The position numbers and the translations under genes were made by a program. DNA of 64,000 bases from Escherichia phage BP9. The stretch is taken from sequence record PP488543.1. One strand, written 5' to 3'. Shown in pieces: positions 5,379 through 31,447 of the stretch (positions within the stretch are counted from its first letter, which is position 1; every line of letters begins with the position of its first letter). The notes beneath the pieces were generated by a model. It searched no databases and was not told the origin of the DNA. It worked only from the letters and a program-made list of their open reading frames with translations.

Positions 5379-6386
5379 ATGATTACTCGTAAAGATGAAT
5401 TTGGCATTGTTGATTTAGGTGCTACTCTGGACCTTGTTCCGCGCCAATTCCGACTGATCACCGGTATGGATCTGTTCGAAACCCGTCTCGGCACCTCAAC
5501 AATTGCTCAGATCGAGCGTGTTGATGAAGTTGTAACCGACATTCCGGCACGCCGTCGTGGTGGTGAGCGTAACTACGTTGGTAATGAACGTGCTCAGGTT
5601 AAAAACCTGAACATCCCGTTCTTCCCTCTGGATAAAGGTATCACTGCTGCAGATGTCCAGAACTTCCGTCGTTACTTCACTCCTGATGCTCCAAAAACTG
5701 TTCAGGACGTAGTAACCCGCGTTGTTCGCCGTATCCGTGTTTCCCATGAAGCACTGCGTGAGAAAGCGCTGTTCCAGGCTATTCTGGGTAAATCCTATGC
5801 ACCTGGTGACACAACCTGTCAGTATGACTACTACACTCTGTGGGGTGTGTCTCAGAAGTCTGTTGAGATCGACCCTGCAAAAGCAGATCAGGATCCTATG
5901 GAGGTTCTGGAAGAAGCTCGTCTGCACATCGCACTGCAAGCTGGTGATAACGCAGCTGGCTATCGCATTGTAGCTCTGTGCTCACCGGAGTTCTTCAGTG
6001 CTGTTACTCATCACCCGCTGGTAGAACTGGCATACACCTATTACGGCTCTGCTCAGGAACCTCTGCGTCGCCGTCTGGGTGCTGGCGGTCAAGACAGCGT
6101 ATATCGTGTGTTTGAGCATAAAGGTATCACCTTTATCGAAGATATCTCTGGCAATATTCCTAAGAAAGAAGCTCGCATTCTGCCGATGGGTATTGATCAG
6201 ATGTTCCAGCTGCACTTTGCTCCGGCAGACGATGTTAACGAAGCAAACACTCCAGCACAGGAACTGTACATGTGGTACAAACACTCTGCATACCTGCGTG
6301 AAGAGAAGATTGAATCTGAAACTTCCATGCTGGCAGTTAACACCCGCCCAGAGCTGGTTGTTAAAGCAACTCTGAAAGGTGACTAA
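5379..6386 (+). CDS. major capsid protein (lambda gpE-like family)
   Basis: 335 aa; position after scaffold and decoration genes; followed by strong terminator. Confidence 0.75.
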   Translation: MITRKDEFGIVDLGATLDLVPRQFRLITGMDLFETRLGTSTIAQIERVDEVVTDIPARRRGGERNYVGNERAQVKNLNIPFFPLDKGITAADVQNFRRYFTPDAPKTVQDVVTRVVRRIRVSHEALREKALFQAILGKSYAPGDTTCQYDYYTLWGVSQKSVEIDPAKADQDPMEVLEEARLHIALQAGDNAAGYRIVALCSPEFFSAVTHHPLVELAYTYYGSAQEPLRRRLGAGGQDSVYRVFEHKGITFIEDISGNIPKKEARILPMGIDQMFQLHFAPADDVNEANTPAQELYMWYKHSAYLREEKIESETSMLAVNTRPELVVKATLKGD

Positions 6387-6410
6387 TCACTAAGGTGATT
6401 CATCCCATAT

Positions 6411-6444
6411 GGGGAGGGGGTTCTCCCCCTCCCCTTTTTTATTT
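6411..6444 (+). terminator. strong intrinsic terminator after major capsid gene
   Basis: GGGGAGGGGG-TTCT-CCCCCTCCCC followed by TTTTTTATTT. Confidence 0.85.
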
Positions 6445-6468
6445 ATTAGGGTTTAACAGGAGTGTCCC

Positions 6469-7314
6469 GTGAAGAGAGCCGTATATCCAGTTGAGTATGA
6501 TCCTCTATTAAGAGTTTTCAACAATCAGTTAAGTTTTTATCAATTTTTAGCACAATATAACCCAGAAATCAATGTTGGTTTATCAGCCCTGCTGCCACCA
6601 ACAGAATTCGTTATCGGCAGTGTTCACTATCCATGTAGAACGATTGTAGACTTCTTCGAGAAGATTGCAAAACACACAGGCCTGCCAATTGATACTGGTA
6701 TTTCAACTATCCGTATGGGTGTTATTCTTCTGTTCTTCACAGAGAACCTTGATGAAAGCACTTTAACACTGCAAAGTGGGGATGTCAATATCACACTCAC
6801 CCCGTCAGTGTTTAAAGAGGTAGATGCGGCTTTCCAAGTTTCCGTGGCAGAGGGCCATCTATGGGACCCTGTAGGGATGCCTAAAAAGGTGACCATAAAC
6901 GATGAGCAATGCAACGTTGTTTATGAAGAAGATACCCAAACTTTCACCATTGAGTGGCCTAAGAAACGTTCTCAGGTTGTAAATCTTGGGCTGGTCTCTA
7001 CGATAGCTCCACCGCCTCAACCAGAGCCGGAGCCGCCTGTAGGTCCTACTGAACCTGGTGGTGGTGAAGAATCCCAAGGTCCGACTGTACCGGAGGGAGG
7101 CACTGAGCAGGATCCTGAACAGGCACAAGAATCAAGATCTTCTCGCAGTGATGTTGATGCCCTACTACAGCAGGCCGCAGCTCTTAACAACGAAGATGAC
7201 AAAAGTGGTTCAAAAGATGCACTCCAAACCTTCGCCAAAGAGCACGGTGTTACCTTAAGTAAGGCAAAAACTTTCCAAAATATGATGAAAGATTTTGAGG
7301 CTGCACTGGCATAA
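6469..7314 (+). CDS. hypothetical structural protein with Pro/Glu-rich linker
   Basis: 281 aa; GTG start with SD AGGAG; internal PPPQPEPEPPVGPTEPGGGEE linker suggests two-domain surface protein. Confidence 0.35.
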   Translation: MKRAVYPVEYDPLLRVFNNQLSFYQFLAQYNPEINVGLSALLPPTEFVIGSVHYPCRTIVDFFEKIAKHTGLPIDTGISTIRMGVILLFFTENLDESTLTLQSGDVNITLTPSVFKEVDAAFQVSVAEGHLWDPVGMPKKVTINDEQCNVVYEEDTQTFTIEWPKKRSQVVNLGLVSTIAPPPQPEPEPPVGPTEPGGGEESQGPTVPEGGTEQDPEQAQESRSSRSDVDALLQQAAALNNEDDKSGSKDALQTFAKEHGVTLSKAKTFQNMMKDFEAALA

Positions 7315-7323
7315 TTTTGTTAA

Positions 7324-7358
7324 GGCCCCTTCCAAATTAGGAATGGGGCTTTATTTTT
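7324..7358 (+). terminator. intrinsic terminator
   Basis: GCCCCTTCC-AAATTA-GGAATGGGGC hairpin then TTTATTTTT. Confidence 0.6.
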
Positions 7359-7373
7359 ACGAGGTATTTTCAA

Positions 7374-7994
7374 ATGGCATGGTATGAAGATGAAGAGATT
7401 ATCCCGTCCCCGCCTAACCATGATGGTGCAGTAGATACCCCAGAAGAACCACCAAAAGAAGATCCTGTACCTCCGGAACCTGATCCAGACCAACCTCTTA
7501 TTAATATTATGAGGTTGTTGCTTGGCAATGTTGATGAGGAAACCCTCCCTGACGAGGTAATTAAAACATTCCTTGACATGGAGAAGTTGAAACTAAATTA
7601 TCCGGCAGATCCTGATAAGCTGCCTCTGCTTAAGTACAATGTGCTTGTGCAGCTTGTGCGGTGGCTGATGATGCAGGAAGTGTCCAGCGGTAATGCAAGT
7701 ATAACTTCCCGTCTGGAAAAAATAGGTGATGAGACCATAGAGATTCGTGGTGGATCTTCCTACGCCCAATGGAAAGATTTCCTTGATTGGCTGCTGGCAC
7801 ACCCAGACTATGTAGATTCTGAGTTAGATGCTTACAGCAGAATGATTATCATTGGTGGTGTCCGTGTAGACGAAGGAATTCGGGTTAAATTTAATGAAAA
7901 CAGCAACGGACCGTTCGATGTCCAGGGGATTACACCTATCAGTGGTCTAAATAACCAACCTCCTCGCCACCCAAGACGCAAACGCAGTTTTTAA
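7374..7994 (+). CDS. hypothetical head-tail joining region protein
   Basis: 206 aa ORF, acidic Pro-rich N-terminus; position between capsid and tail genes. Confidence 0.3.
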   Translation: MAWYEDEEIIPSPPNHDGAVDTPEEPPKEDPVPPEPDPDQPLINIMRLLLGNVDEETLPDEVIKTFLDMEKLKLNYPADPDKLPLLKYNVLVQLVRWLMMQEVSSGNASITSRLEKIGDETIEIRGGSSYAQWKDFLDWLLAHPDYVDSELDAYSRMIIIGGVRVDEGIRVKFNENSNGPFDVQGITPISGLNNQPPRHPRRKRSF

Positions 7995-8000
7995 AAATTG

Positions 8001-8029
8001 TTGCTTTTGATGTATCTTTGTGGTAAAAT
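8001..8029 (+). promoter_or_regulatory. sigma70-type promoter (TTGCTT, 17 bp, TAAAAT with upstream TGG)
   Basis: -35 TTGCTT 8001-8006, 17-bp spacer, -10 TAAAAT 8024-8029; member of recurring TGGTAAAATAC family. Confidence 0.6.
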
Positions 8030-8047
8030 ACATTAGTGAGGGATATA

Positions 8048-8506
8048 ATGCTAAAGGTTAAATGTCAAACAAGGTTCAACCTAAAGCGTTTAGATCGCTT
8101 CTACAAAGAACTTGTGAGACTTGAAAGTAAAACAATAACCTACGGCTTTTATGACGAACCTCACCCGTCAGGCTTAAATATGGCAACATTGGCAGCCATT
8201 CACAACTTCGGTTGGAACGGGCTGCCTGTTCGCAATTTCATGGAGACAGCCTTTGCATTTCACAGCACTCAACTACAGACCTTGACAGAAAAATTGTTGA
8301 GAGCTATGGCTAGAGGATCAAGTGCAGAGGCTATTCTTAAGCAGATGGGGGACACAGGGGCCAAAGCTATCCAGTTTGTTATTGAGGCTGGGCAGTTTAG
8401 TAATCCTACTGTTAGCGAGCAGTGGGCACAAGAGAAAGGCTTCAACGAGGCTATGCGGCATTACGATGTGCTGCTTGAATCTGCAACCTTTAAAATCGGA
8501 CAGTAA
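8048..8506 (+). CDS. hypothetical head completion/connector protein
   Basis: ATG 8048 with SD GAGGG; track GTG start 8036 lies too close to promoter -10. Confidence 0.3.
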   Translation: MLKVKCQTRFNLKRLDRFYKELVRLESKTITYGFYDEPHPSGLNMATLAAIHNFGWNGLPVRNFMETAFAFHSTQLQTLTEKLLRAMARGSSAEAILKQMGDTGAKAIQFVIEAGQFSNPTVSEQWAQEKGFNEAMRHYDVLLESATFKIGQ

Positions 8507-8520
8507 AATAAGGGGGTTGA

Positions 8521-8946
8521 GTGGCAGCAGGTTATAAGCTGATAGGAAAGAACAGACTAATACCTCGTAAAACATTCAAAGGTCGCCACAGAGTGTATAA
8601 CAAAACAGTTGGTGGCCCTTTTGCCAACGAGGGGTTAGAACTTGAGTATGAAGAGTTTGATGTCTTAGAGTGTGTTGTGCAGCCGTTGACAGGAAGGGCG
8701 GCTAAAGATTACTCCTCTCAAATAAACCCTGAAGGTGACAGACAGTACGAGGCTTTTACAGTTTACTCCTCAACCAAGTTGTATAGTCCGGATGAAGGAA
8801 CATACGCAATGGCTGATCAAATTCAACTTCCTGACATCCGTGGTGACTTGAAATGGTTTACCGTTTTAAAATGCGATGCATATGTTACCTCTGGTGGTGG
8901 GAGATATAGATTTTTTGTGGTAGAAGAGCCTGAAGGAGAAAACTAA
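8521..8946 (+). CDS. hypothetical neck/head-closure protein
   Basis: 141 aa; GTG start with SD AAGGGGG. Confidence 0.3.
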   Translation: MAAGYKLIGKNRLIPRKTFKGRHRVYNKTVGGPFANEGLELEYEEFDVLECVVQPLTGRAAKDYSSQINPEGDRQYEAFTVYSSTKLYSPDEGTYAMADQIQLPDIRGDLKWFTVLKCDAYVTSGGGRYRFFVVEEPEGEN

Positions 8947-9497
8947 TGGAAGCTTTCGAAAAAGTTTTTTCTGATCTTGAAACAACCATTGCTAAGCTTG
9001 TCAAGGTTGCCACAGGAAGAACTGTAGTTCTGGCAGAAAGCTCTACCATACCGAAGCCGGAAGGTGAGTTTGTACTTTTACAAACCTTGGCGATCAATCC
9101 TACCACTTGGGAAGATAATGAGTTTCAAGATGCGGAGGGTAATGCTTACGTCACCCACAGCTATACTGTTACCTATCTGCTAACAGCTTATCGTGGCAGG
9201 GCATATGCTGCACTTAGCAGAGTATTGCAAGCAATAAATCTTCCAATGTTTTATGACAAGTATTTCCCTCTGGGGTCGTGCTTTGCCTACTCTAACAATT
9301 CAACAATCTCACCTCAAAGAGTGCCGTTGAATAAGCAGACGTATGAAAATAGAGCCACTGTGATGCTGACATTTAACGTAAGGTTTGTTGAAACAGACAT
9401 TGGGGCTTTTGAGGATCTTCAGGGAATTAAGGCTGAAATAACCACACACTTCCCTTCACCCAATTCTGGTAAAGCGGTTACAGACAGTGGTCAGTAA
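8946..9497 (+). CDS. hypothetical tail completion protein
   Basis: 183 aa; TAATG coupling to upstream gene. Confidence 0.3.
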   Translation: MEAFEKVFSDLETTIAKLVKVATGRTVVLAESSTIPKPEGEFVLLQTLAINPTTWEDNEFQDAEGNAYVTHSYTVTYLLTAYRGRAYAALSRVLQAINLPMFYDKYFPLGSCFAYSNNSTISPQRVPLNKQTYENRATVMLTFNVRFVETDIGAFEDLQGIKAEITTHFPSPNSGKAVTDSGQ

Positions 9498-18518: not shown

Positions 18519-19187
18519 ATGGCTGTAGCTTATCCTACAATACCAATTCCAGATCTTGAAGATGCAGAAACAGTCCTGAGTGATGACTTCTTGGTTGTCA
18601 ACCAGACTGATGGGACAAGAAAGGCTAAGATTGACGATGTTGTCAACGATCTTAGCATCACTAAGATAGTCTATTTCACAGAGGGTGGTTATCTTAAGAG
18701 CAAGAAGGACTTTGCTTATGATCCAGAAACTAAGCGCTACTACACGTGGAACGGGGATTATCCTAAAATAATCCTCCCAGACTCCACTGTAGAGGGTGCT
18801 GGGGGTGTGTCTGCAAATGCCTGGTCTGTTTTTGGTGAGCTTGCTGCAACTTCTTCTGGCAGAATAGTTGATTACGGATCTATCGGTGGTCAGCTTGATA
18901 TGGATCTTGAAGTTGCGGATACCTTTAAGGTTCGACTAACTTCAAATACCACAATCTCTTTTGAAAATCAAACAGAAGGTCTTGAAGGGGTGGCGAGAAC
19001 TATAACCGTATGCATTACTCAGACCTCTGGCGGCAACAAAGTCTATTGGCCAGGTAATGTTAAATGGTCCTACGGAAGAGATCCTATCCTAACATTTACA
19101 GCTGGTGCAACAGACATTTTCAAGTTGGAAACCTACGACAACGGGTTAACTTGGTACGGGGCACTGATTATCGCAGGAGCTATCTAA
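18519..19187 (+). CDS. fibre-anchor domain protein (paralog of N-terminus of the 1270-aa fibre)
   Basis: N-terminus DDFLVVNQTDGTRKAKIDDVV...KDFAY parallels DDYLVVQQPDLTRRVKIGDVV...MDFAY of ORF 21823. Confidence 0.55.
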   Translation: MAVAYPTIPIPDLEDAETVLSDDFLVVNQTDGTRKAKIDDVVNDLSITKIVYFTEGGYLKSKKDFAYDPETKRYYTWNGDYPKIILPDSTVEGAGGVSANAWSVFGELAATSSGRIVDYGSIGGQLDMDLEVADTFKVRLTSNTTISFENQTEGLEGVARTITVCITQTSGGNKVYWPGNVKWSYGRDPILTFTAGATDIFKLETYDNGLTWYGALIIAGAI

Positions 19188-19188
19188 G

Positions 19189-21786
19189 ATGCGTATTCAA
19201 CATAACATTGATAACGTATTTCAGATGATTGAGGGGCACAGGAAGTGCCTCGATAACAACACAGGCATTACCAATCTCCCTACGCAGAACAAGCTGGTAA
19301 ACCCTGATGGTCTTATAGCTGCAGGGTGGGCAGGTAATAAGATAAATAATGATTGGGCAATGCATGAGTCCCAAGCTGTGTTGATTCTGGGATACATTGA
19401 AGCATACAGGGCATCGAAAAGCGATTTCTATCTGGATAGGGCAAAAGATGCTTGGGAAGCTTACAATAGTCATCTTCTGGGTGCATATGCAGTAGAAAGT
19501 AAAATGCAAAGATTGTCCCACTACCCTCTATCTACAGATGGGGTTCCATCACATGGTGGGTTTAAAGATGTGGTGGTGTCTTTTACCAATGGTAGAGGAA
19601 AAATCCCAGCTGGATCTCCGACATGGGGAGAATACCTGGACAAGGCATTCCAAGCGTATAACGGTGTGTTAGGAAGAAACACGGTAGACTCCGATGTTTA
19701 CGGTGGCACAGATGCTAACCCAGATTGGACAACATCCGGATTAAGTTGGTGGGTTGAGTGGTATATAGCATGGGATGGTAACCGCTATTGGGCTAACGGT
19801 AGCATAGCCGACAGTGGGCATACGTCTGTAGAGTTCGGCACAATCCAATTACAAGATAAGGGTGTTACAGGAAGCCACAAGGTAACCTATTGTGTAAGAT
19901 TACCTCAAGAGCAGGGTGGATCGGTGATACCTGCAGGATCCCCTGTAATTGTGAATCCTATAAACGTGGTTGCAGACAATCAAGCCCCAGAGTTGGACGG
20001 GGAAGAAATGTGGTGTGACGCTTGTTATCAACTCTACACCTTGACAGGTGAGGAAAAGTATTACACCGCGTTTAAACAGTCTTACAACAAGTTGCTTAAT
20101 TTCAGTGATATAAACGCCTACGACAAACTGTTTAGAAAGACCACGTTGATTAAGGCACCATTTACAGATGGTGCTTGTCTTGTTGCAGGAACAGTTCCTG
20201 TCATGATCAGGGATAGTGACGGGTATATCAATTTTAGAATGAACGCACGCCAGCCTTGCGAAATAATTCAAAAAGGGACTACATACAAAATAGGCAGAGA
20301 TGCTGAAATTGTTATGAATTTCGGAGGAGAAGGGGTTCTGTTCCAGCCACATTTCATCCTTAATGATGGCAACAATAACAAAAAACAGTACAGGATAGGT
20401 GTTCCTTTTGGAGGTGCAGAGGTAACAGAAATAGTTGCCAAGGTTACTGATTTCGTAGAGGTAGTTGGTAAAGACGGTAATCCGTACCTCTTACCTAAAG
20501 AGGAAAACATTGCCGTGAGCGGTGGTGCCAGTGTTAGTATGCAGTACGATACCGACATTTACAACCACTCTGACAACTTCACCCGTTGTAATATAGCAAG
20601 GGGCAAAGTAACTTTCAATTTTGGAAGAGAGATTTCTTTAAACTCAGTAACTTATCGATCAGATGATGAGATGGTAAGGGTCAAATTTCTTGACAAAGAC
20701 AGGTGGTTATGGTATGCTGATCTATATGCCACTAATGGACAATGGATAACAGAAACTCTTACTCTAGGAGATTTCAAACTAGATCCGACACAACCTCATC
20801 ACACCGAAGAAGAGATTAAACCTTTCTTTGCTAATCCTAAGGGGCTCACCTCTGTAGATTTCAGCCTAAGCGACAGGCAGATAGGTAATGGCTTGTTTGA
20901 CCTATATTGTGTCAACACACTGCCGCAATTTTATATTGCAGATAGAGATGCTTATCTAATCTGGTTTAGCGTATGGATGGCAAGCAAGACAGAATCAACC
21001 GCTAGGGTTGGCGATTGCTATGTCAGAAACTACAAGCAAGGCGCATACAGGCACACACCGGGTGTGTTCCCTGCCGGAAAGGTGATAGATAAGGAAAACT
21101 ATCTCTTAGAGGAAAAGCCAAATTGGCCCTACCCTGGCATGCAATATCCAGCAGTCTACTGCATGGGTGCAGAAAACATAGATCGCCATAGATTGTCAAA
21201 TACAATAGGCTTTCTGTATGACGCTCAAGTCTGGTATAATAATACATTTAAGACAGAGGGTCCAGTTGCCTCGCGTTATGTATGGCAGAGAGGTAATGAA
21301 GGGCTGACTGGTTGGTGGGAGATGGTAGATAACTCTAAACTCCAGTCAAGATCTTTTGTTGCTGCGTGCCGCACAATATATGAGCTCAAGAAACATAAAG
21401 AACCTGTTGATGAAAGACTATTCCTGTTCTGCCAGAAATGGGCATGGTTCCTCAACAGATTCCAGTCATCTCATTCAGGAAATCTGCCCACAGACTTTAA
21501 CACCTCTGGGGGATATTCTTATCAAGACAGAGGAGACAGGATGTGGGTGGTAGGTGAATGGCTTGCAGGTTGCTGCTGGCTAGGTCTGTGCGGGTATTCA
21601 GAGACAATACCTCAAATAGATATTGTTGTGGAAGCCTGTGTGAAGCTACTGCAAAAGCACCACTTCATTAATGGGGATAATATTTTAAACGGCTGCTGGG
21701 CAGTTTCTGATCCGGTTGGCTATCACTCTGGCGAAATCCTTCGCGGTCTGGGCCTTTATGCTCAATACCGTGGATTGTACCTTTAA
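19189..21786 (+). CDS. large tail-associated protein, enzyme-like (possible polysaccharide depolymerase)
   Basis: 865 aa; Trp/Tyr-rich, no fibre anchor domain; translationally coupled to preceding anchor-domain gene (TAA-G-ATG). Confidence 0.35.
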   Translation: MRIQHNIDNVFQMIEGHRKCLDNNTGITNLPTQNKLVNPDGLIAAGWAGNKINNDWAMHESQAVLILGYIEAYRASKSDFYLDRAKDAWEAYNSHLLGAYAVESKMQRLSHYPLSTDGVPSHGGFKDVVVSFTNGRGKIPAGSPTWGEYLDKAFQAYNGVLGRNTVDSDVYGGTDANPDWTTSGLSWWVEWYIAWDGNRYWANGSIADSGHTSVEFGTIQLQDKGVTGSHKVTYCVRLPQEQGGSVIPAGSPVIVNPINVVADNQAPELDGEEMWCDACYQLYTLTGEEKYYTAFKQSYNKLLNFSDINAYDKLFRKTTLIKAPFTDGACLVAGTVPVMIRDSDGYINFRMNARQPCEIIQKGTTYKIGRDAEIVMNFGGEGVLFQPHFILNDGNNNKKQYRIGVPFGGAEVTEIVAKVTDFVEVVGKDGNPYLLPKEENIAVSGGASVSMQYDTDIYNHSDNFTRCNIARGKVTFNFGREISLNSVTYRSDDEMVRVKFLDKDRWLWYADLYATNGQWITETLTLGDFKLDPTQPHHTEEEIKPFFANPKGLTSVDFSLSDRQIGNGLFDLYCVNTLPQFYIADRDAYLIWFSVWMASKTESTARVGDCYVRNYKQGAYRHTPGVFPAGKVIDKENYLLEEKPNWPYPGMQYPAVYCMGAENIDRHRLSNTIGFLYDAQVWYNNTFKTEGPVASRYVWQRGNEGLTGWWEMVDNSKLQSRSFVAACRTIYELKKHKEPVDERLFLFCQKWAWFLNRFQSSHSGNLPTDFNTSGGYSYQDRGDRMWVVGEWLAGCCWLGLCGYSETIPQIDIVVEACVKLLQKHHFINGDNILNGCWAVSDPVGYHSGEILRGLGLYAQYRGLYL

Positions 21787-21790
21787 CATA

Positions 21791-21813
21791 GGGGGGCTGT
21801 TTGCCCCCTTTCA
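21791..21813 (+). terminator. hairpin, weak terminator or attenuator
   Basis: GGGGGC-TGTTT-GCCCCC then TTTC. Confidence 0.4.
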
Positions 21814-21822
21814 GGAGAAAGA

Positions 21823-24800
21823 ATGGCTGATATTAAAGTTGTCAGAATTGAATCTCTTCCTGCCACTACCGCAGTGACAGAGGATGATTACCTGGTTGTT
21901 CAACAACCAGACCTGACCCGTCGTGTAAAAATTGGCGATGTTGTCCATGTTGATGGGACTGTTTCTCATGTAATCTCCTTTAAGGAAGGTGGTAAGTTAA
22001 ACGGCCCAATGGATTTTGCCTACTTCGAAGAGGAAGACCTCTACCTGCGTTGGAAAGGCGAATTTCCGCACACTGTTCCTGCACTATCTTCACCGTACTC
22101 CGATGGCGGGATTACTGACGCTGCATGGATGGTATATACTGACCCGTCCTTAAGGGAGGAGCTGGAATCTACCATTGGCGCATCCATGATCATGACAGCC
22201 GAAGGGCAGTCTGTCCAGGATGTAATGGATGTTACTGTTCAGACAGCTAACGATGCCAAAGCACTTGCACAGCGTGTAGATTTTGGTACAGTGCACACTG
22301 TAGGCGATGTTATTCACCTTGATAACTTTGTTGGCCCTGCAGTTATTGAAGAGGGAAGAACTACCAACTACCCTTCTGTAGCAGCTGGTGAAAAATTTCT
22401 GAACGGTGTGGTATCTCGTCGTGATACTACAACTGTTGATGGTATTTTCCGTGGCGCTACCTCCGGAGCAATGTATACCATTGCAGTAACCAACGGTGTA
22501 GCAACAACAAAAAGAATAGCACTTCGTGATGAATTTAAACGCCTGGAGGCAAACAACCAAACAAGAACAATTATCCGTGCTGGAGATGATTTAAACACGG
22601 CAGGGTACTTGCAGCTTGATGCAACAGGCCGTTGGGGTATGTGGAACCAACAAACAGCTTCTTGGCAGCCTCTTGCTATAGAGCAGGGCGGCACAGGGGC
22701 TAGAGATGCCGCTGGAATCCGTACCAATATCGGTGCTTTCTATAAGCAACGTGCAGCCCTTGAGCCAAATTTCAATATCAATAACTTGACTGGTAATCAG
22801 GATGGTATATACTACCAGCCGATGACTGCTTATGCAACTGAGGCAAATGGTTATCCTGCAGGTTCTGGTGCTGGTCACTTGATTGTTTGGCAGAACAATG
22901 CTAACGGTGGTACAGGTTGTCGTCAGGAATACTATCCATTCTCCAACGTAGATGTTTGGTATTTGAGAACCTATCAGGCCAACACAAATCAGTGGACTGC
23001 ATGGCAGCCGATGGTCAGACCTCGTAACGATGATACCTTTAGAGCGCACATCGGTCTCGGGTCTAGAAACTCCCCTACCTTCGGGCACCTTTACCTGTCT
23101 CAAAGCTCTGCGGATGTTAAGTCAGCATCAGGTATTGTTAACGGAGACAAATACAACGCTGACGGTGTCCTTGAGCATGGGTATAGGATCTACTCTGAGG
23201 TAAGGAACGACAATAAGGCTTGGTTGACAATCCACCTGCACAAAGGTGCAAAAGGATCTGAAACTCATAGATATTTAGGCTTCCGTGAGGATGGGGTCTT
23301 AGATTGTCCTAAATATATGCAGGTTGGTGATCTGAACGGTCAGATGGCAAACTGGGGACTTGGAGAATGGATCCGCAGTTCAGGAGCAGAAAGAGGTTTC
23401 TGGGGATCTAAGAAAGCCGCCAAGATGGTCATCTGGGATGGCGGTATGGACGAGCAAGGTGAAGGAACGCTTGAGTGGGGTGTTTATAACAACCGGAAAG
23501 CCAAATGGGAACCACTACCGATAGCTTGTGGTGGTACCAGTGCCAGGACTGTAGGGGATGCTCAAGCACAATTCAGAATCCCTCTGGCAGCAGGTACTAG
23601 ACCATATGTAAACCTGCCTAGAACTGCAGCTATGCAGGACGGTAAGTATTATCCTATTATCGTCAGAACTGACCCCAACTTTGCAGCAACTATCGGGACA
23701 GATTTAACCATTGTCACCAGATCTTCTTCTGGCGGCGACCCAATGAACTGTGCTACACTACAGTGTCACTACAGAATTGGTGGCTGGACAGACAGAGGTG
23801 ATTCTTTCCAAGGGGTTATTAATTTCTACCAAAACGAGAAAGCAATCCTCGGATGTGTATCTCCAACCAGAGGTAAGCAGGAGTATGTTGCATTCTATGT
23901 AGAGGCACGTGCATTCCCTGTTACAGTATATGCTGGCGCTACTGTAATAGAAGTGTCAACCAGGGAGGTTGATTGGCAGGTAGGCAACGTGGAAGGTAAC
24001 CAAGATGGTGTCAAGTTCTGTGCTCCTCTGGCATCTGCAGATTTGAGTCTTGCAATCAAAGGTGATGATGTAACAAACACTAGACCTCTGGTTGAGTTCA
24101 AAGGGACATCAGGTTTCTACACTGGTGGTGGAACTATGTGGCACTACCTGGGAACTCCTGAACGCTATGCAGTGATGAGCAAAATGAACATGCCTAAAGT
24201 CGAGCTTTGGGCAGACGGTATTGACTACATTTGTCCTGGTAGTCAGACCACTAGAAAAGCACTGTTCTCTAACGCAGGGTTCCAAGCTGCATCGGAAGGA
24301 ACAGAGGATCTGATCAACAACACCTTTACCTCTAAATGTGGTAATGGTGCAAGACTACAAGGCCAGGCAGAGTTCAGATCTACTCCAGAGGCTGGTCAAG
24401 TTATTGTTCGTGATGTTGTAGGCACAGCTCATAGATTCTATAACTTCAACAAAGATGGCACTTTCTCAGCCCCTGGTGGTTTTGTATGTCATACTGGTGC
24501 AGACTGGAACAACCAGTTTGGGCCTAACAACCCTTCTAAAATAATGGCAGGCAATGTCAACGGACCTGAAGGATCGATGGTTGTTGGTGGGTTGTCTGTG
24601 GCGTTTTCTGGAAACTATGCCTTCCAAATGGCTGGTCGCCTTGATCAGTTATACACCAGATCTATCGAGGGTGGTAACCATAGGGCATGGAACAAAGTTA
24701 TTCAGCACCGTGGTCAAGGTCTGGGGACAGAAGACCTTAATGACTACGATGGTAGCCGTGAAGGTTTCTATCACCAGGGTTCAAACGCTGACGCACTTGT

Positions 24801-25635
24801 AATAGCTCGTCACTACCCTGCTCCGTACGCTGGTACGCTGCTTGTTTACAAAAACACAGCCAACAGACCGCAAGGTTGTGTGCAGGAATACATTACCTAT
24901 TTTGGTGACAGATATACTCGTGCTGGTAACTACGTTGGCGATGTCTTTACTTGGGAAGAATGGAGACACGATGCTGGTAAGGGCATTCAGTTAAGACCTA
25001 ATTACACTTTCGGTGAAAACAGTACTCAGCTGGAAATTCATGTTGGTGCTAATGGTCTTCCATCCAACGCCGATAACTTACCTACCAACAATGCTATACT
25101 CCATTATTGGGGTAACGGCAGTGCAGGGACTCGTCCAAACGTGTTAGAGTTTAAGGTTCTTGACGAGTCTCAATCGGCTTATGTATGGCATTGCGGTACC
25201 TTGCCGGATAAATCAAGATATCTTTCTGTAAACGGTGCTGTGAATTGCACATCTGTCAATCAGAGTTCTGACAGAGATCTGAAAGATAACATAGCTGTTA
25301 TTCCTGATGCGTTAGAAGCTATCCGGAAGATGAGGGGTTATACTTACACTCTTAAAGAGAACGGTATGCCTTATGCAGGTGTTATAGCACAAGAAGTTCT
25401 TGAAGCGCTGCCGGAAGCAGTTAGCTCTTTCGTGCAAAGAAAGGAAATCCCAAACCCTGATCAGGATGGAACTCCTTTAATAACAGAGGAAAGATTCTAC
25501 AGCGTGGATTACGCAGCTGTAACAGGCTTGCTTGTCCAGGTTTGCAGGGAACAGGATGATAAAATAACCGCCCTTGAGGAGCAGGTTAAAAAATTGACAG
25601 AGGTTGTTACTGGGTTGCAAGAGAAACTGAAGTAA
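21823..25635 (+). CDS. long tail fibre with C-terminal intramolecular chaperone (peptidase S74-like) domain
   Basis: 1270 aa; C-terminal SSDRDLKDNIAVIPDALEAIRKMRGYTYTL...AGVIAQEV...coiled coil matches auto-cleaving chaperone domain. Confidence 0.75.
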   Translation: MADIKVVRIESLPATTAVTEDDYLVVQQPDLTRRVKIGDVVHVDGTVSHVISFKEGGKLNGPMDFAYFEEEDLYLRWKGEFPHTVPALSSPYSDGGITDAAWMVYTDPSLREELESTIGASMIMTAEGQSVQDVMDVTVQTANDAKALAQRVDFGTVHTVGDVIHLDNFVGPAVIEEGRTTNYPSVAAGEKFLNGVVSRRDTTTVDGIFRGATSGAMYTIAVTNGVATTKRIALRDEFKRLEANNQTRTIIRAGDDLNTAGYLQLDATGRWGMWNQQTASWQPLAIEQGGTGARDAAGIRTNIGAFYKQRAALEPNFNINNLTGNQDGIYYQPMTAYATEANGYPAGSGAGHLIVWQNNANGGTGCRQEYYPFSNVDVWYLRTYQANTNQWTAWQPMVRPRNDDTFRAHIGLGSRNSPTFGHLYLSQSSADVKSASGIVNGDKYNADGVLEHGYRIYSEVRNDNKAWLTIHLHKGAKGSETHRYLGFREDGVLDCPKYMQVGDLNGQMANWGLGEWIRSSGAERGFWGSKKAAKMVIWDGGMDEQGEGTLEWGVYNNRKAKWEPLPIACGGTSARTVGDAQAQFRIPLAAGTRPYVNLPRTAAMQDGKYYPIIVRTDPNFAATIGTDLTIVTRSSSGGDPMNCATLQCHYRIGGWTDRGDSFQGVINFYQNEKAILGCVSPTRGKQEYVAFYVEARAFPVTVYAGATVIEVSTREVDWQVGNVEGNQDGVKFCAPLASADLSLAIKGDDVTNTRPLVEFKGTSGFYTGGGTMWHYLGTPERYAVMSKMNMPKVELWADGIDYICPGSQTTRKALFSNAGFQAASEGTEDLINNTFTSKCGNGARLQGQAEFRSTPEAGQVIVRDVVGTAHRFYNFNKDGTFSAPGGFVCHTGADWNNQFGPNNPSKIMAGNVNGPEGSMVVGGLSVAFSGNYAFQMAGRLDQLYTRSIEGGNHRAWNKVIQHRGQGLGTEDLNDYDGSREGFYHQGSNADALVIARHYPAPYAGTLLVYKNTANRPQGCVQEYITYFGDRYTRAGNYVGDVFTWEEWRHDAGKGIQLRPNYTFGENSTQLEIHVGANGLPSNADNLPTNNAILHYWGNGSAGTRPNVLEFKVLDESQSAYVWHCGTLPDKSRYLSVNGAVNCTSVNQSSDRDLKDNIAVIPDALEAIRKMRGYTYTLKENGMPYAGVIAQEVLEALPEAVSSFVQRKEIPNPDQDGTPLITEERFYSVDYAAVTGLLVQVCREQDDKITALEEQVKKLTEVVTGLQEKLK

Positions 25636-25642
25636 CTGTTTT

Positions 25643-25672
25643 GCCCCCGCTTCGGCGGGGGCTTTTTGTTTG
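25643..25672 (+). terminator. intrinsic terminator (CCCCGCTTCGGCGGGG family)
   Basis: GCCCCCGC-TTCG-GCGGGGGC then TTTTTGTTTGT. Confidence 0.85.
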
Positions 25673-26877: not shown

Positions 26878-27302
26878 TGAGCACACATCCTCGTCTAGTG
26901 GACTGGCAAGAAAGATTGTGGAAAGTGTTTGACGAAGAGGCCACCATACCTTTTGAATGGGGATTCCACGATTGTTGCACCTTTGCAGCTAAGTGTGTTG
27001 ATGCCCAATACGGAACAGATTTTCTTTCTAACTTCGAAGGAACGTATAAAACAGAGTTGGAAAGCAAAAGATGGTGCATGCTCCGTTTCAAAACCACACA
27101 CCTGCCTACTATTTTTGATCTCTTTATGACTCGGCTGGATACTCCTAAACAGGTTCAGCGTGGAGATATTGTCATTTTCGAAGGTCTGAACGGCCTCACC
27201 GCTGGTGTGTTCTGGAACAACCAGATTTGGGCGAAAGGTGATAAAGGGGTCTTTATGTTCGATATGAAAGATTCTATCGTTGTTGATGTCTGGAGGTATT
27301 AA
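26877..27302 (+). CDS. hypothetical tail assembly protein (gpK-like position), Cys/His motif HDCC
   Basis: ATG 26877 with SD GGGAGG, TAATG coupling (track start 26865). Confidence 0.35.
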   Translation: MSTHPRLVDWQERLWKVFDEEATIPFEWGFHDCCTFAAKCVDAQYGTDFLSNFEGTYKTELESKRWCMLRFKTTHLPTIFDLFMTRLDTPKQVQRGDIVIFEGLNGLTAGVFWNNQIWAKGDKGVFMFDMKDSIVVDVWRY

Positions 27303-30300
27303 TGCCAATTGCAATGATTGATAACATCGTTGCTTCTGCAAGATCTTCAAGTTATGACTGGAACGCATCCAAGGCAGCTCTGGCTGACAGCCTGAACACT
27401 GTTACCACCAGAACTCTGGATAAGATTTTTGAGGGTAACAAATCTTACAGAAGTCAGCAAGATAGACAAAAGCTTCTCAGATCTTCTGCTGCACCCTGCT
27501 CTGTAGTGTATGGAAAGACACGCACATCTGGATTGCTTGCGTTTTTGGAGCAGGATAGAGACAAAACCCTCCATTGTGCTATTGTTCTTGCCAATCACCC
27601 TCTGGAAGGTATAGAAGATATACTTATCGATGGTAATCCTATTTCCTCGTATGGAGATTTGGTATCGTGGGAGTTACATAACGACAGAAAAACGGCTGAT
27701 CCTTTCATGGGGACACACTGCCCATCGTGGTCACCAGACATGATAGGTAGAGGGATCAGTTGGCTACGTGCCAGCTTCAAGTTCGACCCTAACAAGTTTC
27801 CTTTTGGGTTGCCAAACGTTACACTCGTTAAGGTTGGTAAAAAATGCTATGATCCTCGTATCAGTAAAGAGGTGTACACCAATAACGCATCCTTGGTGAT
27901 CCTGGACTATTTAAGAACGTACCTTAAATGTCCTGACGAAACCATCAACTGGGAGTCCTTTAAGGAGGCTGCCAACATATGCGACGAGGCGGTAAAAAAC
28001 GCTGACGGAACCAGTGAGCGACGTTACACCATTAACGGTGAGTTTGACATGGATGAGGCCCCAGCAAGTATTATGGCAGAAATGCTGAAAGCTTGCGGTG
28101 CAGACCTTAGTTATGTTGCTGGTAAGTATGGTTTGCTGGTTGGTGCATACTATGGTCCGGCAACAATGACATTGAGTGAGGACTGTGTCTGTGGTGAGGT
28201 TAAGATCTATCCGGAAGCCTCATTTGACAAAAGATCTAACACAATAACTGGCAGATTCACTAGTCCGACCAAAGGGTATTCTGAAACAGATTTCCCATCA
28301 GTGTTTGTCCCAGAGTGGATAGAGAAGGATGGAGAAAGAAAGATAATCGATATAGACTATCGCTTTGTTACCAGTCCTTATCAAGCTCAACGTGTTTCTG
28401 CAATCTTCTTAAGACGTGCTAGAGCTGGCAGGATTATTGAAGTCACCTGCAATATGCGAGGTTTTAAATTTAAGCCTGGCCGTTACGTTACAATGAATCT
28501 CCCAAGTATTGGTATAGTAGGCCAAGAAATGAGGGTTCTTGAATGGGAGTTCACCAAAAAGGGTGGTGTCAAGGTAAAACTTCGTCAAGATGCTAAAGAG
28601 TGGAATGATGCCACAGGGCAACTTCCGGATTCTGGTGATGTAGATATTCCGATATCTCCATCTGGTGTAGCTCAACCGCAAAACTTCAGATACTCCGTCC
28701 TCCAAGCTGGGGAAATAACTCACGGTGTTCTGGCTTGGGACAACGTTGGGACTTACGCTCAAAATATTGTGCAGGTAAGAAAGAACGGAGAGATTGTTTG
28801 GACAGCACAGACAGTTGAGCAGTTTGTCCGAGTAGAAGGCTTGACCAAAGGGTCATACACAGCAACCGTGGTTGCAACATCTTATAAAGGTGGTGTATCT
28901 CCAGAAGCGTACTGCGAGTTTAACATTCAGGCACCTGAAGCTCCTGTTTCTGTAGAGGTTAAGCAGGGATACTTTGCTATCACCTTGATTCCACACAGCA
29001 GGGATTTAGCAAGTGTAAGCACCCAGTATGACTTTTGGACATCTGGTATGACAAGGTTGCCCGACACCAGCGATGCAACCGTTACTTCAAACGCCACCCG
29101 TATGGGTGTTGGTTCAACTTGGACATCCGAAGGTCTGCAGAACGATAAGGTTTATTATTGGTATATTCGAACCACAAACGCTTTTGGTAGCTCTCAGTTT
29201 GTAGAGTGTGCTGCACGCTGCTATACCTCCATTGAGGATTTGATGCCTCAGATAGATGCTGAATTCAAAAAGACAGAAACTTATAAAGAGTTGATGAGCA
29301 CTTTGGATTCCTCTATTGAAGAGGTTGAAAATCGTGTCACAGAACTTAACAGGTACATGGATGGTAGAGTTGACGAGGCTTTTGACCACATGGAAGGTGA
29401 GTTCTCTAGAGTAGACAAGCTGTATGCTCAGTTGGGAGATAGGGTTGGAATATTCATCCAAGAAACCCACGACAACTTCCAGGACGTTAATGGAACGCTT
29501 ACCACTCTAGATCAGAAACTGGTAGCCACTCAGAACAAGTTTGCAGATGATCTTTCTAAAGAAAGTGGCAAGCTTGCTTCTCTAATCCAGACCACTAACA
29601 AAGCTACAACCGATCTGTTAAATCAGAAAACTGAAGCTTTGGACGAGAAGATTGTTTCAACCAGGGGTGAGTTGGAAGATGCTTTAGCGCAGGAAAGCTC
29701 TGAGCTGAACTCCCTGATTGTATCAACCAATAAAACGACTACAGATCTCCTTAATCGGAAAACCGAGGCTTTAGACAATAAGCTGACGGCAACGAAAGGT
29801 GAGTTGACCAACAATCTGCAGAATGAGAGTGCTAAACTATCGTCCTTGATTGAGTCAACCAACAAATCCACCACTGATCTTCTTAATAAGAAAACAGAGG
29901 CGTTGGATGAAAAACTGGTTGCTGCACAGGGCGAGTTGACTGAGCAGATCGGAGATGTTGAAAAAGGCTATCTGGCTGGTGATAAGAGCCTAGAGGGCAA
30001 GTTGAATACTCAAAGATCTGAGTTGGATGCGAGCATTCTGAGCACTAACCAGGCCACTGTGGACTTGCTGAACAGAACTTCTGAGACTCTTGACCAGAAG
30101 ATTAGCCAGACCAACGCCACAGTGTCCAAAAACTACACCACGCTTGATGGTAAGATAAACACCGCCAAGTCTGATCTTAATACGTTGATTTCTACCACCA
30201 ACAAGGCCACAACTGACCTGTTGAATCAGAAAACGGCAGCTTTGACTGAGCAGTTAACCACTGCTAAAGGGCAGATTACAACCAACACCAATAATATTAC

Positions 30301-31447
30301 TGGGTTGGACAATAAGCTGACTCAGACGAAGAAAGACTTGTCTGCGAATATTTCTGAAACTAATAACGCCACTGTTGATCTGATTAACGGCACAGCGTCA
30401 GCTATTCGTCAAGAACTTGCTGTTGCTAAGCAGGAGATCATTGATGGTGTTGGCGATGTGTCCGAGATCAGGGCTGCAGTAGCTACAACAGCTAAGGCTG
30501 TGACCGACTTAGAGGGTAAAGTAAATGCTCAGTGGGGTACAAAAATACAGGTAGACTCCGCAGGGAATAAATATGTTGCAGGTATCCAGTTGGGGATGGA
30601 AGGGTCTGGGGGCCAAGTTCAATCCTACTTCATGGTTAGTGCAAACAATTTTGCGGTATACAATCCTGGCAATGGAACAGCAACCCTTGCTTTCGCAATC
30701 AAGAACAACCAAGCGTTCTTGAAAGACGCTTTTATAGAGAATGGCACGATCTCCTCTGCCAAGATCGCACAAGAAATTTCGTCAAACAACTACGATGGCA
30801 ACGGGTACCATAAATACGGTTGGTATATTAACAAGAACGGGCACGCCCAATTTATGGATGTGTGGGTGAAAGGCAACATCAACGCCAGTTCTGGTAACTT
30901 CACAGGGGCAGTTAACGCCACTAGTGGTACCTTCCGTGGGGATGTTTATGCCAATAATGGTAGCTTTAGAGGCACCATAGATGCAACCGGAGGTACCTTC
31001 CGTGGTCGTGTAGAAGCTTCTGTTATCCGTGCCAACCAGTTCGAAGGTGCAATTGTTGCACACAGGACTTACGGGGATTGTGCTCCAGTATATAACTCTC
31101 AGCAAAGGGTTTGCCGTTGGAGGTGGAGATACGTAGATAACGTTTCAGGTCAGGGTAAGAACGTAACATTCTTCTTTAAACTGAACGGTACTCTTGCCAG
31201 CTCCCAACTGAATGCATGGATAGCTGGTCATCAGATCCTTGCTGGCAAGAAGTATTTTAACGACAACAACGGCATGTGTGCGGTAGGGATAACAGGTCTG
31301 GGTGAACAAACTATAGACATTGTTATCGAGATTTACACACCGTGGTCAACGTCGAGCGTGACAGGTGTCACAATCTCCTGTCCCACTGTGATAGTAAGTC
31401 GTTCAAACTCTAGCTTCCAGGGACCTTGGAACGAGTCTCACGACTAA
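27302..31447 (+). CDS. central tail fibre / host specificity protein (lambda gpJ-like) with inserted coiled-coil repeats
   Basis: 1381 aa; FN3-like segment and YVAGIQLGMEGSGG...FMVSANNFAVYNPGNG region parallel lambda J; 5-6 tandem TNKxTTDLLNxKTEALDxKL repeats. Confidence 0.75.
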   Translation: MPIAMIDNIVASARSSSYDWNASKAALADSLNTVTTRTLDKIFEGNKSYRSQQDRQKLLRSSAAPCSVVYGKTRTSGLLAFLEQDRDKTLHCAIVLANHPLEGIEDILIDGNPISSYGDLVSWELHNDRKTADPFMGTHCPSWSPDMIGRGISWLRASFKFDPNKFPFGLPNVTLVKVGKKCYDPRISKEVYTNNASLVILDYLRTYLKCPDETINWESFKEAANICDEAVKNADGTSERRYTINGEFDMDEAPASIMAEMLKACGADLSYVAGKYGLLVGAYYGPATMTLSEDCVCGEVKIYPEASFDKRSNTITGRFTSPTKGYSETDFPSVFVPEWIEKDGERKIIDIDYRFVTSPYQAQRVSAIFLRRARAGRIIEVTCNMRGFKFKPGRYVTMNLPSIGIVGQEMRVLEWEFTKKGGVKVKLRQDAKEWNDATGQLPDSGDVDIPISPSGVAQPQNFRYSVLQAGEITHGVLAWDNVGTYAQNIVQVRKNGEIVWTAQTVEQFVRVEGLTKGSYTATVVATSYKGGVSPEAYCEFNIQAPEAPVSVEVKQGYFAITLIPHSRDLASVSTQYDFWTSGMTRLPDTSDATVTSNATRMGVGSTWTSEGLQNDKVYYWYIRTTNAFGSSQFVECAARCYTSIEDLMPQIDAEFKKTETYKELMSTLDSSIEEVENRVTELNRYMDGRVDEAFDHMEGEFSRVDKLYAQLGDRVGIFIQETHDNFQDVNGTLTTLDQKLVATQNKFADDLSKESGKLASLIQTTNKATTDLLNQKTEALDEKIVSTRGELEDALAQESSELNSLIVSTNKTTTDLLNRKTEALDNKLTATKGELTNNLQNESAKLSSLIESTNKSTTDLLNKKTEALDEKLVAAQGELTEQIGDVEKGYLAGDKSLEGKLNTQRSELDASILSTNQATVDLLNRTSETLDQKISQTNATVSKNYTTLDGKINTAKSDLNTLISTTNKATTDLLNQKTAALTEQLTTAKGQITTNTNNITGLDNKLTQTKKDLSANISETNNATVDLINGTASAIRQELAVAKQEIIDGVGDVSEIRAAVATTAKAVTDLEGKVNAQWGTKIQVDSAGNKYVAGIQLGMEGSGGQVQSYFMVSANNFAVYNPGNGTATLAFAIKNNQAFLKDAFIENGTISSAKIAQEISSNNYDGNGYHKYGWYINKNGHAQFMDVWVKGNINASSGNFTGAVNATSGTFRGDVYANNGSFRGTIDATGGTFRGRVEASVIRANQFEGAIVAHRTYGDCAPVYNSQQRVCRWRWRYVDNVSGQGKNVTFFFKLNGTLASSQLNAWIAGHQILAGKKYFNDNNGMCAVGITGLGEQTIDIVIEIYTPWSTSSVTGVTISCPTVIVSRSNSSFQGPWNESHD
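29560..30440 (+). repeat. in-frame tandem coiled-coil repeats (about 37-40 aa units) inside J-like gene
   Basis: Protein-level repeats with synonymous divergence at DNA level. Confidence 0.7.

Follow-up and report, generated by a model that had tools for sequence, protein, structure and literature searches.

Introduction

How does a phage particle carry an enzyme-like protein that has no recognisable anchor of its own? The question is raised by a locus in Escherichia phage BP9 (record PP488543.1), of which we analysed a stretch of 64,000 nt (the window). Three open reading frames (ORFs) follow one another on its plus strand and encode proteins of 222, 865 and 1270 amino acids (aa). A previous sequence-only reading, whose ORF boundaries we confirm (Table 1), had taken the first two for a split adaptor-plus-enzyme tailspike beside a conventional single-chain fibre, with one docking domain common to the 222-aa and 1270-aa proteins. 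Over the ~8 kb around the locus, identity is 100% to Escherichia phage VB-EcoM-WM and 90–97% to over 100 Vequintavirus (rV5-like) genomes. In curated relatives these ORFs are found between sheath-initiator/baseplate genes and additional fibre genes, and are annotated as a 'sialidase domain protein' (222 aa), as a 'lateral tail fiber protein with glycosidase domains' (865 aa) and as a 'lateral tail fiber protein' (1270 aa). Our comparisons make it likely that the 222-aa protein is an adaptor stub and the 865-aa protein its enzyme cargo, and we refer to the two as carrier and enzyme.

The carrier and enzyme genes form a conserved pair

The sole distant homologues of the enzyme (25–31% identity) were found in a large-phage contig (L003), a phiEa21-4-like phage of Felix O1 type (L004) and a Burkholderia prophage (L005). 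The genes that abut the enzyme start at these loci encode proteins of 153, 244 or 473 aa, whose C-terminal ~100 aa match carrier residues ~120–221 (E = 1e-20 to 1e-8) and whose N-termini are unrelated to that of the 222-aa protein. A profile search of viral contigs with this C-terminal domain (C-domain) returned 80 loci, among which L008–L059 were analysed for the linkage of close copies; ~49 of them could be evaluated, and three more were cut by contig ends. At every evaluable locus the C-domain terminates its ORF and an enzyme homologue comes next (E = 1e-176 to 0), at a distance of −4 to +12 nt in automated calls; wherever the start call is clean, the spacing is −4 to +14 nt. Four loci that seemed to depart from this also have the enzyme as the next gene when start calls, and in L053 a disrupted frame, are taken into account.

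Defined as a terminal C-domain with a same-strand enzyme gene immediately downstream, the cassette occurs in the window, at the evaluable L008–L059 loci, at L003–L005, at L007 and at L088–L092. Carriers of 153, 157, 207, 210, 222, 224–226, 244, 258, 269, 473 and 561–563 aa represent at least 11 architectures, and the pair is found in three virion morphotypes. Its members include phi92-like Justusliebigvirus (157 + 958 aa), Rosemountvirus and Loughboroughvirus (207 + 985 aa and 206 + 980 aa), Erwinia phage phiEa21-4 (gp71 + gp72) and Yersinia podophage ISAO8 (269 + 930 aa). Judged from these comparisons, the carrier N-terminus is exchangeable between phages and the C-domain/enzyme pair is a portable two-gene cassette. 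Distances between C-domains are correlated with those between enzymes (Mantel r = 0.75, p ≤ 0.0002, 15 lineages), and the pair therefore moves as a cassette.

In the T7-like podovirus ISAO8 the carrier consists of a T7 gp17 tail-docking domain (PF03906, Phage_T7_tail; E = 1e-8, above the cutoff) followed by the C-domain, and is the sole annotated fibre among 46 genes. The enzyme homologue is therefore the only evident candidate for host recognition, reaching the tail via the carrier.

In Rosemountvirus and Loughboroughvirus, as seen in Salmonella phage SE13 (L089:5722-9302) and in ZCSE2 (L091:3276-6853), the pair lies between neck/head-completion genes and the sheath gene, outside the baseplate cluster; the carrier N-terminus of these phages, rich in Ala, Glu and Gln, is possibly helical. 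Because of this gene location and the distinct N-terminus, the appendage of these phages might be located at the neck instead of the baseplate.

Both products reach the particle in at least one relative. Mass spectrometry of total rV5 virions detected gp43 (222 aa), gp42 and gp41 (1272 aa) (PMC3606486), and the virion proteins of phage S144 include gp16 (21 kDa; 3 peptides) and gp17 (111 kDa; 25 peptides) (PMC7432712). The S144 proteins correspond in size and position to the ZCSE2 pair, the identity between the two phages being as given in PMC7432712. The pair is thus present in virions of rV5 and probably in those of S144.

The enzyme has a glycosidase-type fold and no anchor

For the 865-aa protein we found neither a Pfam family nor a solved structure detectably related in sequence, and a word-indexed search with it retrieved six cluster representatives only. 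Homologues down to 25% identity all begin directly with the same conserved N-terminal region, and in none of those inspected did we find an anchor domain. The AlphaFold2 (AF2) model (predicted local distance difference test, pLDDT, 70) has twelve long helices, which come from the first ~320 and the last ~210 residues, with beta-rich segments inserted between; this is the barrel fold of the six-hairpin (alpha/alpha)6 glycosidase superfamily. The term 'enzyme-like', applied earlier to this ORF, is supported at the level of fold, without a specific glycoside hydrolase (GH) family. Residues E60, D270 and E849 are invariant across 15 lineages, as are several Arg, Tyr and Trp residues, and the model places each of the three acidic residues inside a barrel helix or at its edge. 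They would be compatible with catalytic roles, in a model that resolves no active site. The ISAO8 homologue has a sub-threshold match to GH76 (20.9 bits; cutoff 25.9).

Foldseek searches with the 865-aa protein gave domain-level matches only, to CBM11 and other jelly rolls of the carbohydrate-binding module (CBM) type, and the internal beta-sandwich module (residues ~482–581) is probably carbohydrate-binding. This module recurs as the C-terminal tip of gp70, the phiEa21-4-like 'proximal tail fiber' (enzyme hidden Markov model [HMM] positions 470–654, E = 1e-39), as seen at L055:3971-5497 and in the 502-aa ORF of L004 (5749-7257); this distribution suggests a shuffled carbohydrate-binding module. 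At L059:6196-10236 a 1347-aa enzyme homologue has gained an extra C-terminal GH8 domain (Pfam; residues 1058–1344, E = 1e-38), so that the cassette cargo can evidently acquire a second glycosidase module.

In a classical tailspike, one chain comprises an N-terminal particle-binding domain and, after it, a right-handed parallel beta-helix body. Neither member of the pair is of this kind: the 865-aa model shows a helical barrel with beta-sandwiches and no anchor, and the 222-aa protein has an anchor without a catalytic body. The word 'tailspike' in the sequence-only reading does not hold in the sense of a trimeric beta-helix protein.

We also considered that the 865-aa protein might be primarily an assembly factor of the small fibre, akin to Tfa or gp38, and not functional enzyme cargo. 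Its gene lies directly 3′ of a fibre-like gene, like Mu U, P2 G and T4 gp38, and some such chaperones, among them T2 gp38, remain on the fibre tip. Tfa/gp38-type proteins are small, however, and the 865-aa protein has no Tfa, Caudo_TAP or GP38 match in Pfam; we regard a role of this kind as highly improbable.

The C-domain is widespread and unannotated

The part of the carrier that precedes the enzyme gene is all-beta in the AF2 model of the 222-aa protein (pLDDT 63–76) and ends in a single Asp-box-like motif, S/T-x-D-x-G-x-T-W. Neither a Pfam scan of 29 C-domains nor a profile search of PDB sequences gave a meaningful match; in a word-index protein search the bare C-domain had no match, and the full 222-aa protein found close orthologues only. 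An exhaustive HMMER search with the C-domain profile nevertheless retrieved 4,059 representatives of 50%-identity clusters at E ≤ 1e-3. In 132 of the 150 best representatives (proteins of 86–2036 aa) the domain lies no more than 12 residues from the C-terminus. It is a previously undescribed, widespread and unannotated domain, which annotation pipelines label 'tail fiber' or 'sialidase domain'.

The second of these labels deserves comment. Sialidases have a six-bladed beta-propeller, several Asp-boxes, a catalytic Arg triad, a Tyr and a Glu. The ~110-aa domain has one Asp-box-like motif and neither propeller nor catalytic signature, and Pfam BNR matched a single C-domain of the 29 scanned (E = 0.089); we therefore reject a sialidase identity for the 222-aa protein. 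The label 'sialidase domain protein' in BASEL records (for example MZ501061, bas59_0024) probably rests on that motif.

More distant copies of the domain are followed by other genes. At L060, L066, L067 and L071 (downstream ORFs ~6320-9230) and at L062, L063 and L070, large proteins unrelated to the enzyme follow at −1 to +18 nt; one group belongs to a proline/glycine/asparagine-rich repeat family ('PGN..YNP') and another to a ~725-aa family. The enzyme HMM matched none of the cargo behind distant C-domains, and the strict pairing rule is therefore limited to the enzyme-linked subfamily. Three giant proteins (P0012, P0013 and P0019; 1389–2036 aa) contain 4–5 copies of the domain, ~350 aa apart.

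Adaptor or independent fibre tip

Because the C-domain directly precedes an anchor-less enzyme across many unrelated phages, it most likely acts as an adaptor that holds the enzyme on the particle, presumably by direct binding. Several observations weigh against this interpretation. Linkage and co-divergence are expected of any tightly linked pair of genes that move together, whether or not their products touch. No natural carrier–enzyme fusion was found in a Rosetta-stone search of ~46 enzyme homologues and 150 C-domain representatives. The AF2 model of the 222-aa protein is poor overall (pLDDT 46.6; below 35 in the N-terminal half), and the enzyme has no Pfam match and falls into no CAZy or Pfam GH family (GH8, GH76, GH88 or others). 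The C-domain ends many long fibre-like proteins, is present in more than one copy in 32 of the 150 best representatives and, in its more distant versions, precedes proteins with no relation to the enzyme, so that it could be a domain of fibre tips in general and not a dedicated dock. Finally, a cryo-EM study of phi92 (2026) failed to fit gp140, the phi92 member of the carrier family, into fibre density (PMC13450770).

The same observations could be accommodated if the 222-aa protein were an independent mini-fibre with a receptor-binding C-terminal tip, the enzyme joining the virion otherwise, for instance by contact with a wedge protein, and the adjacency of the genes reflecting co-regulation or co-transfer. 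The extreme C-terminal position of the domain in those 132 representatives is the usual place of a receptor tip, Asp-boxes are common in glycan-binding proteins, and distant copies do precede unrelated genes. Such a mini-fibre does not explain why the enzyme follows at every evaluable close-copy locus, across all carrier architectures and all three morphotypes, nor why the ISAO8 carrier has nothing but a gp17 N-domain and the C-domain. Moreover, an anchor is not recognisable on the enzyme of any lineage, while the platforms on which it occurs are unrelated (T7-like tail, Felix O1-like, rV5-like, Rosemountvirus), which makes a conserved direct contact between enzyme and platform hard to picture. 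We judge the mini-fibre unlikely and retain the adaptor as the preferred explanation. The proposal of a split adaptor and enzyme made in the sequence-only reading is thus borne out by the conserved gene pair, by the exchange of carrier N-termini and by an enzyme that lacks an anchor yet is found, as gp42, in rV5 virions. That the split is kept so strictly suggests that the two chains need different oligomeric states.

The phi92 study leaves fibre II unidentified and lists gp140 as a fibre-like candidate (PMC13450770); gp141 was listed as a glycosidase-type tailspike by Schwarzer 2012, as reported in PMC5380687; and according to the BASEL account (PMC8594841) the genes cannot clearly be assigned to individual fibre components. 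In the papers available, these and PMC3606486 among them, gp140/gp43 and gp141/gp42 are treated as separate candidates, and neither a role of gp140/gp43 as adaptor of gp141/gp42 nor the spread of a cassette is described.

The carrier shares its N-terminal module with the 1270-aa fibre

BLASTP comparison of the 222-aa and 1270-aa proteins gave one significant segment, residues 8–105 versus 7–105 (38% identity over 99 residues, 55% positives, 1 gap, E = 3e-18), and phmmer gave E = 5e-17 and 2e-18 in the two directions. The N-terminal paralogy suggested earlier is therefore real, and from the extent of the aligned segment it covers ~100–105 residues, not the ~60 then assigned. Two parts make up the module. 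Its first ~45 residues, with the motif DDxLVVxQ...TR+xKIxDVV, lie outside any Pfam model, and residues ~46–105 belong to PF18668 (Tail_spike_N), scoring above the gathering threshold in both proteins. PDB sequence matches were to CBA120 TSP1/3/4, G7C 4qnl, 9occ (chain 9occ_G) and 8x8m, at residues ~70–260 of those tailspikes (~70–160 for the matches of the carrier's Tail_spike_N domain to CBA120 TSP1/3/4, G7C 4qnl and 9occ_G), so that the Pfam part corresponds to a neck domain preceding the catalytic body. The extreme N-terminal peptide would be the better candidate for the actual anchor. No third copy of the module was found in the window (six-frame translation searched by BLASTP, phmmer and two multi-lineage profile HMMs; next best E > 1), and an anchor-only HMM matches just the 222-aa and 1270-aa ORFs there (E = 2e-21 and 1e-17).

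Sharing of an anchor between carrier and co-resident fibre recurs in four lineages. It was observed between the 222-aa and 1270-aa proteins of the window and the corresponding 222-aa and 1274-aa proteins of L007, a diverged relative (E ~1e-17); between the 224-aa and 712-aa proteins of L015 (47% identity over 103 aa, with PF18668 in both); between 153-aa and ~1490-aa and 206-aa proteins in L003/L052; and between 244-aa and 502-aa proteins in L004/L054. The 157-aa carrier of phi92-like phages keeps the same anchor peptide (HMM E = 8e-13), and no partner fibre for it was found in the phi92-like genome regions examined; sharing is therefore recurrent and not universal. In a large class of small, ~30-kb contigs with carriers of 560–563 aa (L017, L037 and L049), the first ~136 carrier residues are paralogous to a ~157-aa ORF ~3 kb downstream (E = 1e-12 to 1e-15).

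Since fibre genes are highly mosaic, the common N-terminus could in principle be no more than what remains of a duplication of, or recombination between, adjacent fibre genes, uninformative as to common docking, and the partnerless anchor of the phi92-like carrier would fit such an origin. Against it, the paralogy is kept at ~36–38% identity in two Vequintavirus-type lineages whose orthologues have diverged to 56–73%, the same arrangement occurs with unrelated anchor sequences in three other lineages, and the module includes a curated tailspike N-terminal domain. A remnant is, in our estimate, very unlikely. The 1270-aa protein, with the same N-terminal module and a Peptidase_S74 domain (PF13884, E = 9e-14), corresponds to the conventional single-chain fibre expected beside the split pair, and the S74 assignment made earlier is correct.

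Features and signals at the locus

The coordinates of all features are collected in Table 1. The carrier stop codon (TAA, 19185–19187) is separated by one base from the enzyme ATG at 19189, and an AGGAG lies inside the upstream gene. Of the earlier claim that the two genes are translationally coupled, this tight juxtaposition stands, and juxtaposition is as much as the sequence can demonstrate. There is no support for a classical intrinsic terminator after the 865-aa gene: the hairpin there is followed by a short T tract only and is not called by a terminator scan.

Table 1. Features of the carrier–enzyme–fibre locus (window coordinates)
Feature	Position	Strand	Basis or remark
Carrier (putative adaptor) gene, 222 aa	18519..19187	+	rV5 gp43 orthologue; phi92-like counterpart is the 157-aa gp140-type protein; PHROG 7760 'tail fiber protein', E = 8e-120
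N-terminal anchor peptide (candidate), carrier residues 1–45, ...IPIPDL...DDFLVVNQTDGTRKAKIDDVV	18519..18653	+	Common with 1270-aa fibre; BLASTP E = 3e-18
Tail_spike_N, carrier residues 51–105	18669..18833	+	PF18668, E = 2e-10, 41 bits (cutoff 25)
C-terminal cargo-associated domain, carrier residues ~110–222, beta-rich, single terminal Asp-box ETYDNGLTW	18846..19184	+	Homology to C-termini of proteins upstream of enzyme homologues
Shine-Dalgarno-like AGGAG of 865-aa gene, within carrier gene	19174..19178	+	Sequence reading; 10 nt 5′ of ATG
Anchor-less enzyme-like protein (putative cargo), 865 aa	19189..21786	+	rV5 gp42 orthologue; phi92-like counterpart is the 958-aa gp141-type 'glycosidase'
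Internal beta-sandwich module of enzyme, residues ~482–581	20632..20931	+	phrog_23426, E = 1.5e-12; Foldseek domain-level
GC-rich hairpin between 865-aa and 1270-aa genes; weak terminator/attenuator candidate	21790..21810	+	RNA fold −17.4 kcal/mol, z = −2.1
Single-chain long fibre, 1270 aa	21823..25635	+	rV5 gp41 orthologue; PHROG 6578
Anchor peptide + Tail_spike_N of fibre, residues 1–103	21823..22131	+	BLASTP; PF18668 at residues 46–103, E = 9e-11, 42 bits (cutoff 25)
Peptidase_S74 intramolecular chaperone domain, residues 1149–1200	25267..25422	+	PF13884, E = 9e-14, 52 bits
Canonical intrinsic terminator 3′ of fibre gene	25643..25662	+	8 GC pairs, 4-nt loop, T-run

Two further observations concern the surroundings and relatives of the locus. 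A protein of 1381 aa, encoded at window positions 27302–31447 inside this myovirus baseplate/fibre cluster, has domains of lambda-J type (PF09327 Phage_Tail_Tip, E = 8e-39; PF24489 Ig_J_second, E = 1e-30); other records call it a lateral tail fibre containing an FN3 domain. Approximately 18–23 'Campylobacter phage' records with Campylobacter jejuni as host (for example MG065646, MG065647, MG065661 and MG065662) are 94–100% identical to the E. coli Vequintavirus locus; their host attribution looks doubtful.

Discussion

Starting from the established paralogy, domain composition, strict gene linkage, anchor swapping and glycosidase-type fold, we picture the appendage as follows. The 222-aa protein would be a short, probably trimeric, adaptor stub, attached to the baseplate periphery by its first ~45 residues and the Tail_spike_N neck; the 1270-aa fibre would attach likewise, because its N-terminal region is paralogous to that of the carrier. 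The ~110-residue beta-rich, Asp-box-terminated C-domain of the stub would hold the product of the next gene. This cargo would be the 865-aa multidomain protein, a predicted (alpha/alpha)6 glycoside-hydrolase-type barrel with inserted CBM-like beta-sandwich modules and no virion anchor of its own, so that the abutting reading frames would yield one appendage for receptor binding or glycan processing. Phages would plug the cassette into their own virion by exchanging the carrier N-terminus only.

The closest relatives of the pair are rV5 gp43/gp42, which are direct orthologues, and phi92 gp140/gp141, which are members of the same family. As in CBA120 (TSP1–4; Ackermannviridae) and G7C (gp66/gp63.1), several receptor-binding or glycan-processing proteins per virion would be mounted through modular N-terminal parts, and the Tail_spike_N domain (PF18668) of those proteins is present in both the 222-aa and the 1270-aa protein. 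In branched complexes of receptor-binding proteins (RBPs), T4 gp10-like (XD) domains, as in CBA120 TSP2/4, G7C gp66 and KP32 gp37, are the attachment site for the second RBP; here the holder would be an unannotated beta-rich/Asp-box domain, without a detectable gp10-like one. In the T7-like podoviruses K1-5, K1E and SP6, small gp37-type adaptors with a T7 gp17-type N-terminal docking domain hold an enzyme encoded by another gene. Precisely this N-domain is found on the ISAO8 carrier, but the putative cargo-binding part is different and occurs also on myovirus baseplates and in prophages, and the cargo is no endosialidase or lyase beta-helix or propeller trimer.

The dual RBPs of Klebsiella phages KP32 and KP34 employ a branching domain, and a short conserved N-terminal peptide of RBP2 docks to RBP1 (PMC13352976, PMC6872550). 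They resemble the window pair in combining an anchor with a secondary RBP in exchangeable modules. They differ from it in that the enzyme N-terminus here appears, in the model, to be the first barrel helix, with no docking peptide, and in that the carrier itself lacks a catalytic body. T2 offers another likeness, a downstream-encoded protein on the C-terminal tip of a fibre that provides receptor contact, but gp38 is small, non-enzymatic and unrelated in sequence, and the 865-aa protein has no Gp38/Tfa domain. In its logic the pairing is a branched or adaptor-type receptor-binding complex; what sets it apart is the putative holder domain, which is unannotated, and a cargo that is not a beta-helix but an (alpha/alpha)6 protein.

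Tentatively, the C-domain might serve phages more generally as a portable dock, so that gp10-like branching domains and gp37-type adaptors would be joined by a third system of attachment. If so, phages could hang non-trimeric, non-beta-helix cargo on a fibre stub: six-hairpin glycosidases in the cassette, and PGN-repeat and other large proteins in the distant versions. Proteins with 4–5 interspersed copies would then be multi-cargo racks, and the gp140/gp141-type pair would account for one unassigned baseplate fibre of phi92- and rV5-like phages.

For these phages, the pairing rule, that a gp43/gp140-type protein carries a gp42/gp141-type enzyme, provides a directly testable assignment within the multivalent 'Swiss army knife' adsorption apparatus. 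It further predicts how an anchor-less glycosidase would be mounted on very different virions, and it offers a compact two-gene module for host-range engineering, in which the carrier N-terminus would be swapped while the C-domain and its cargo are retained.

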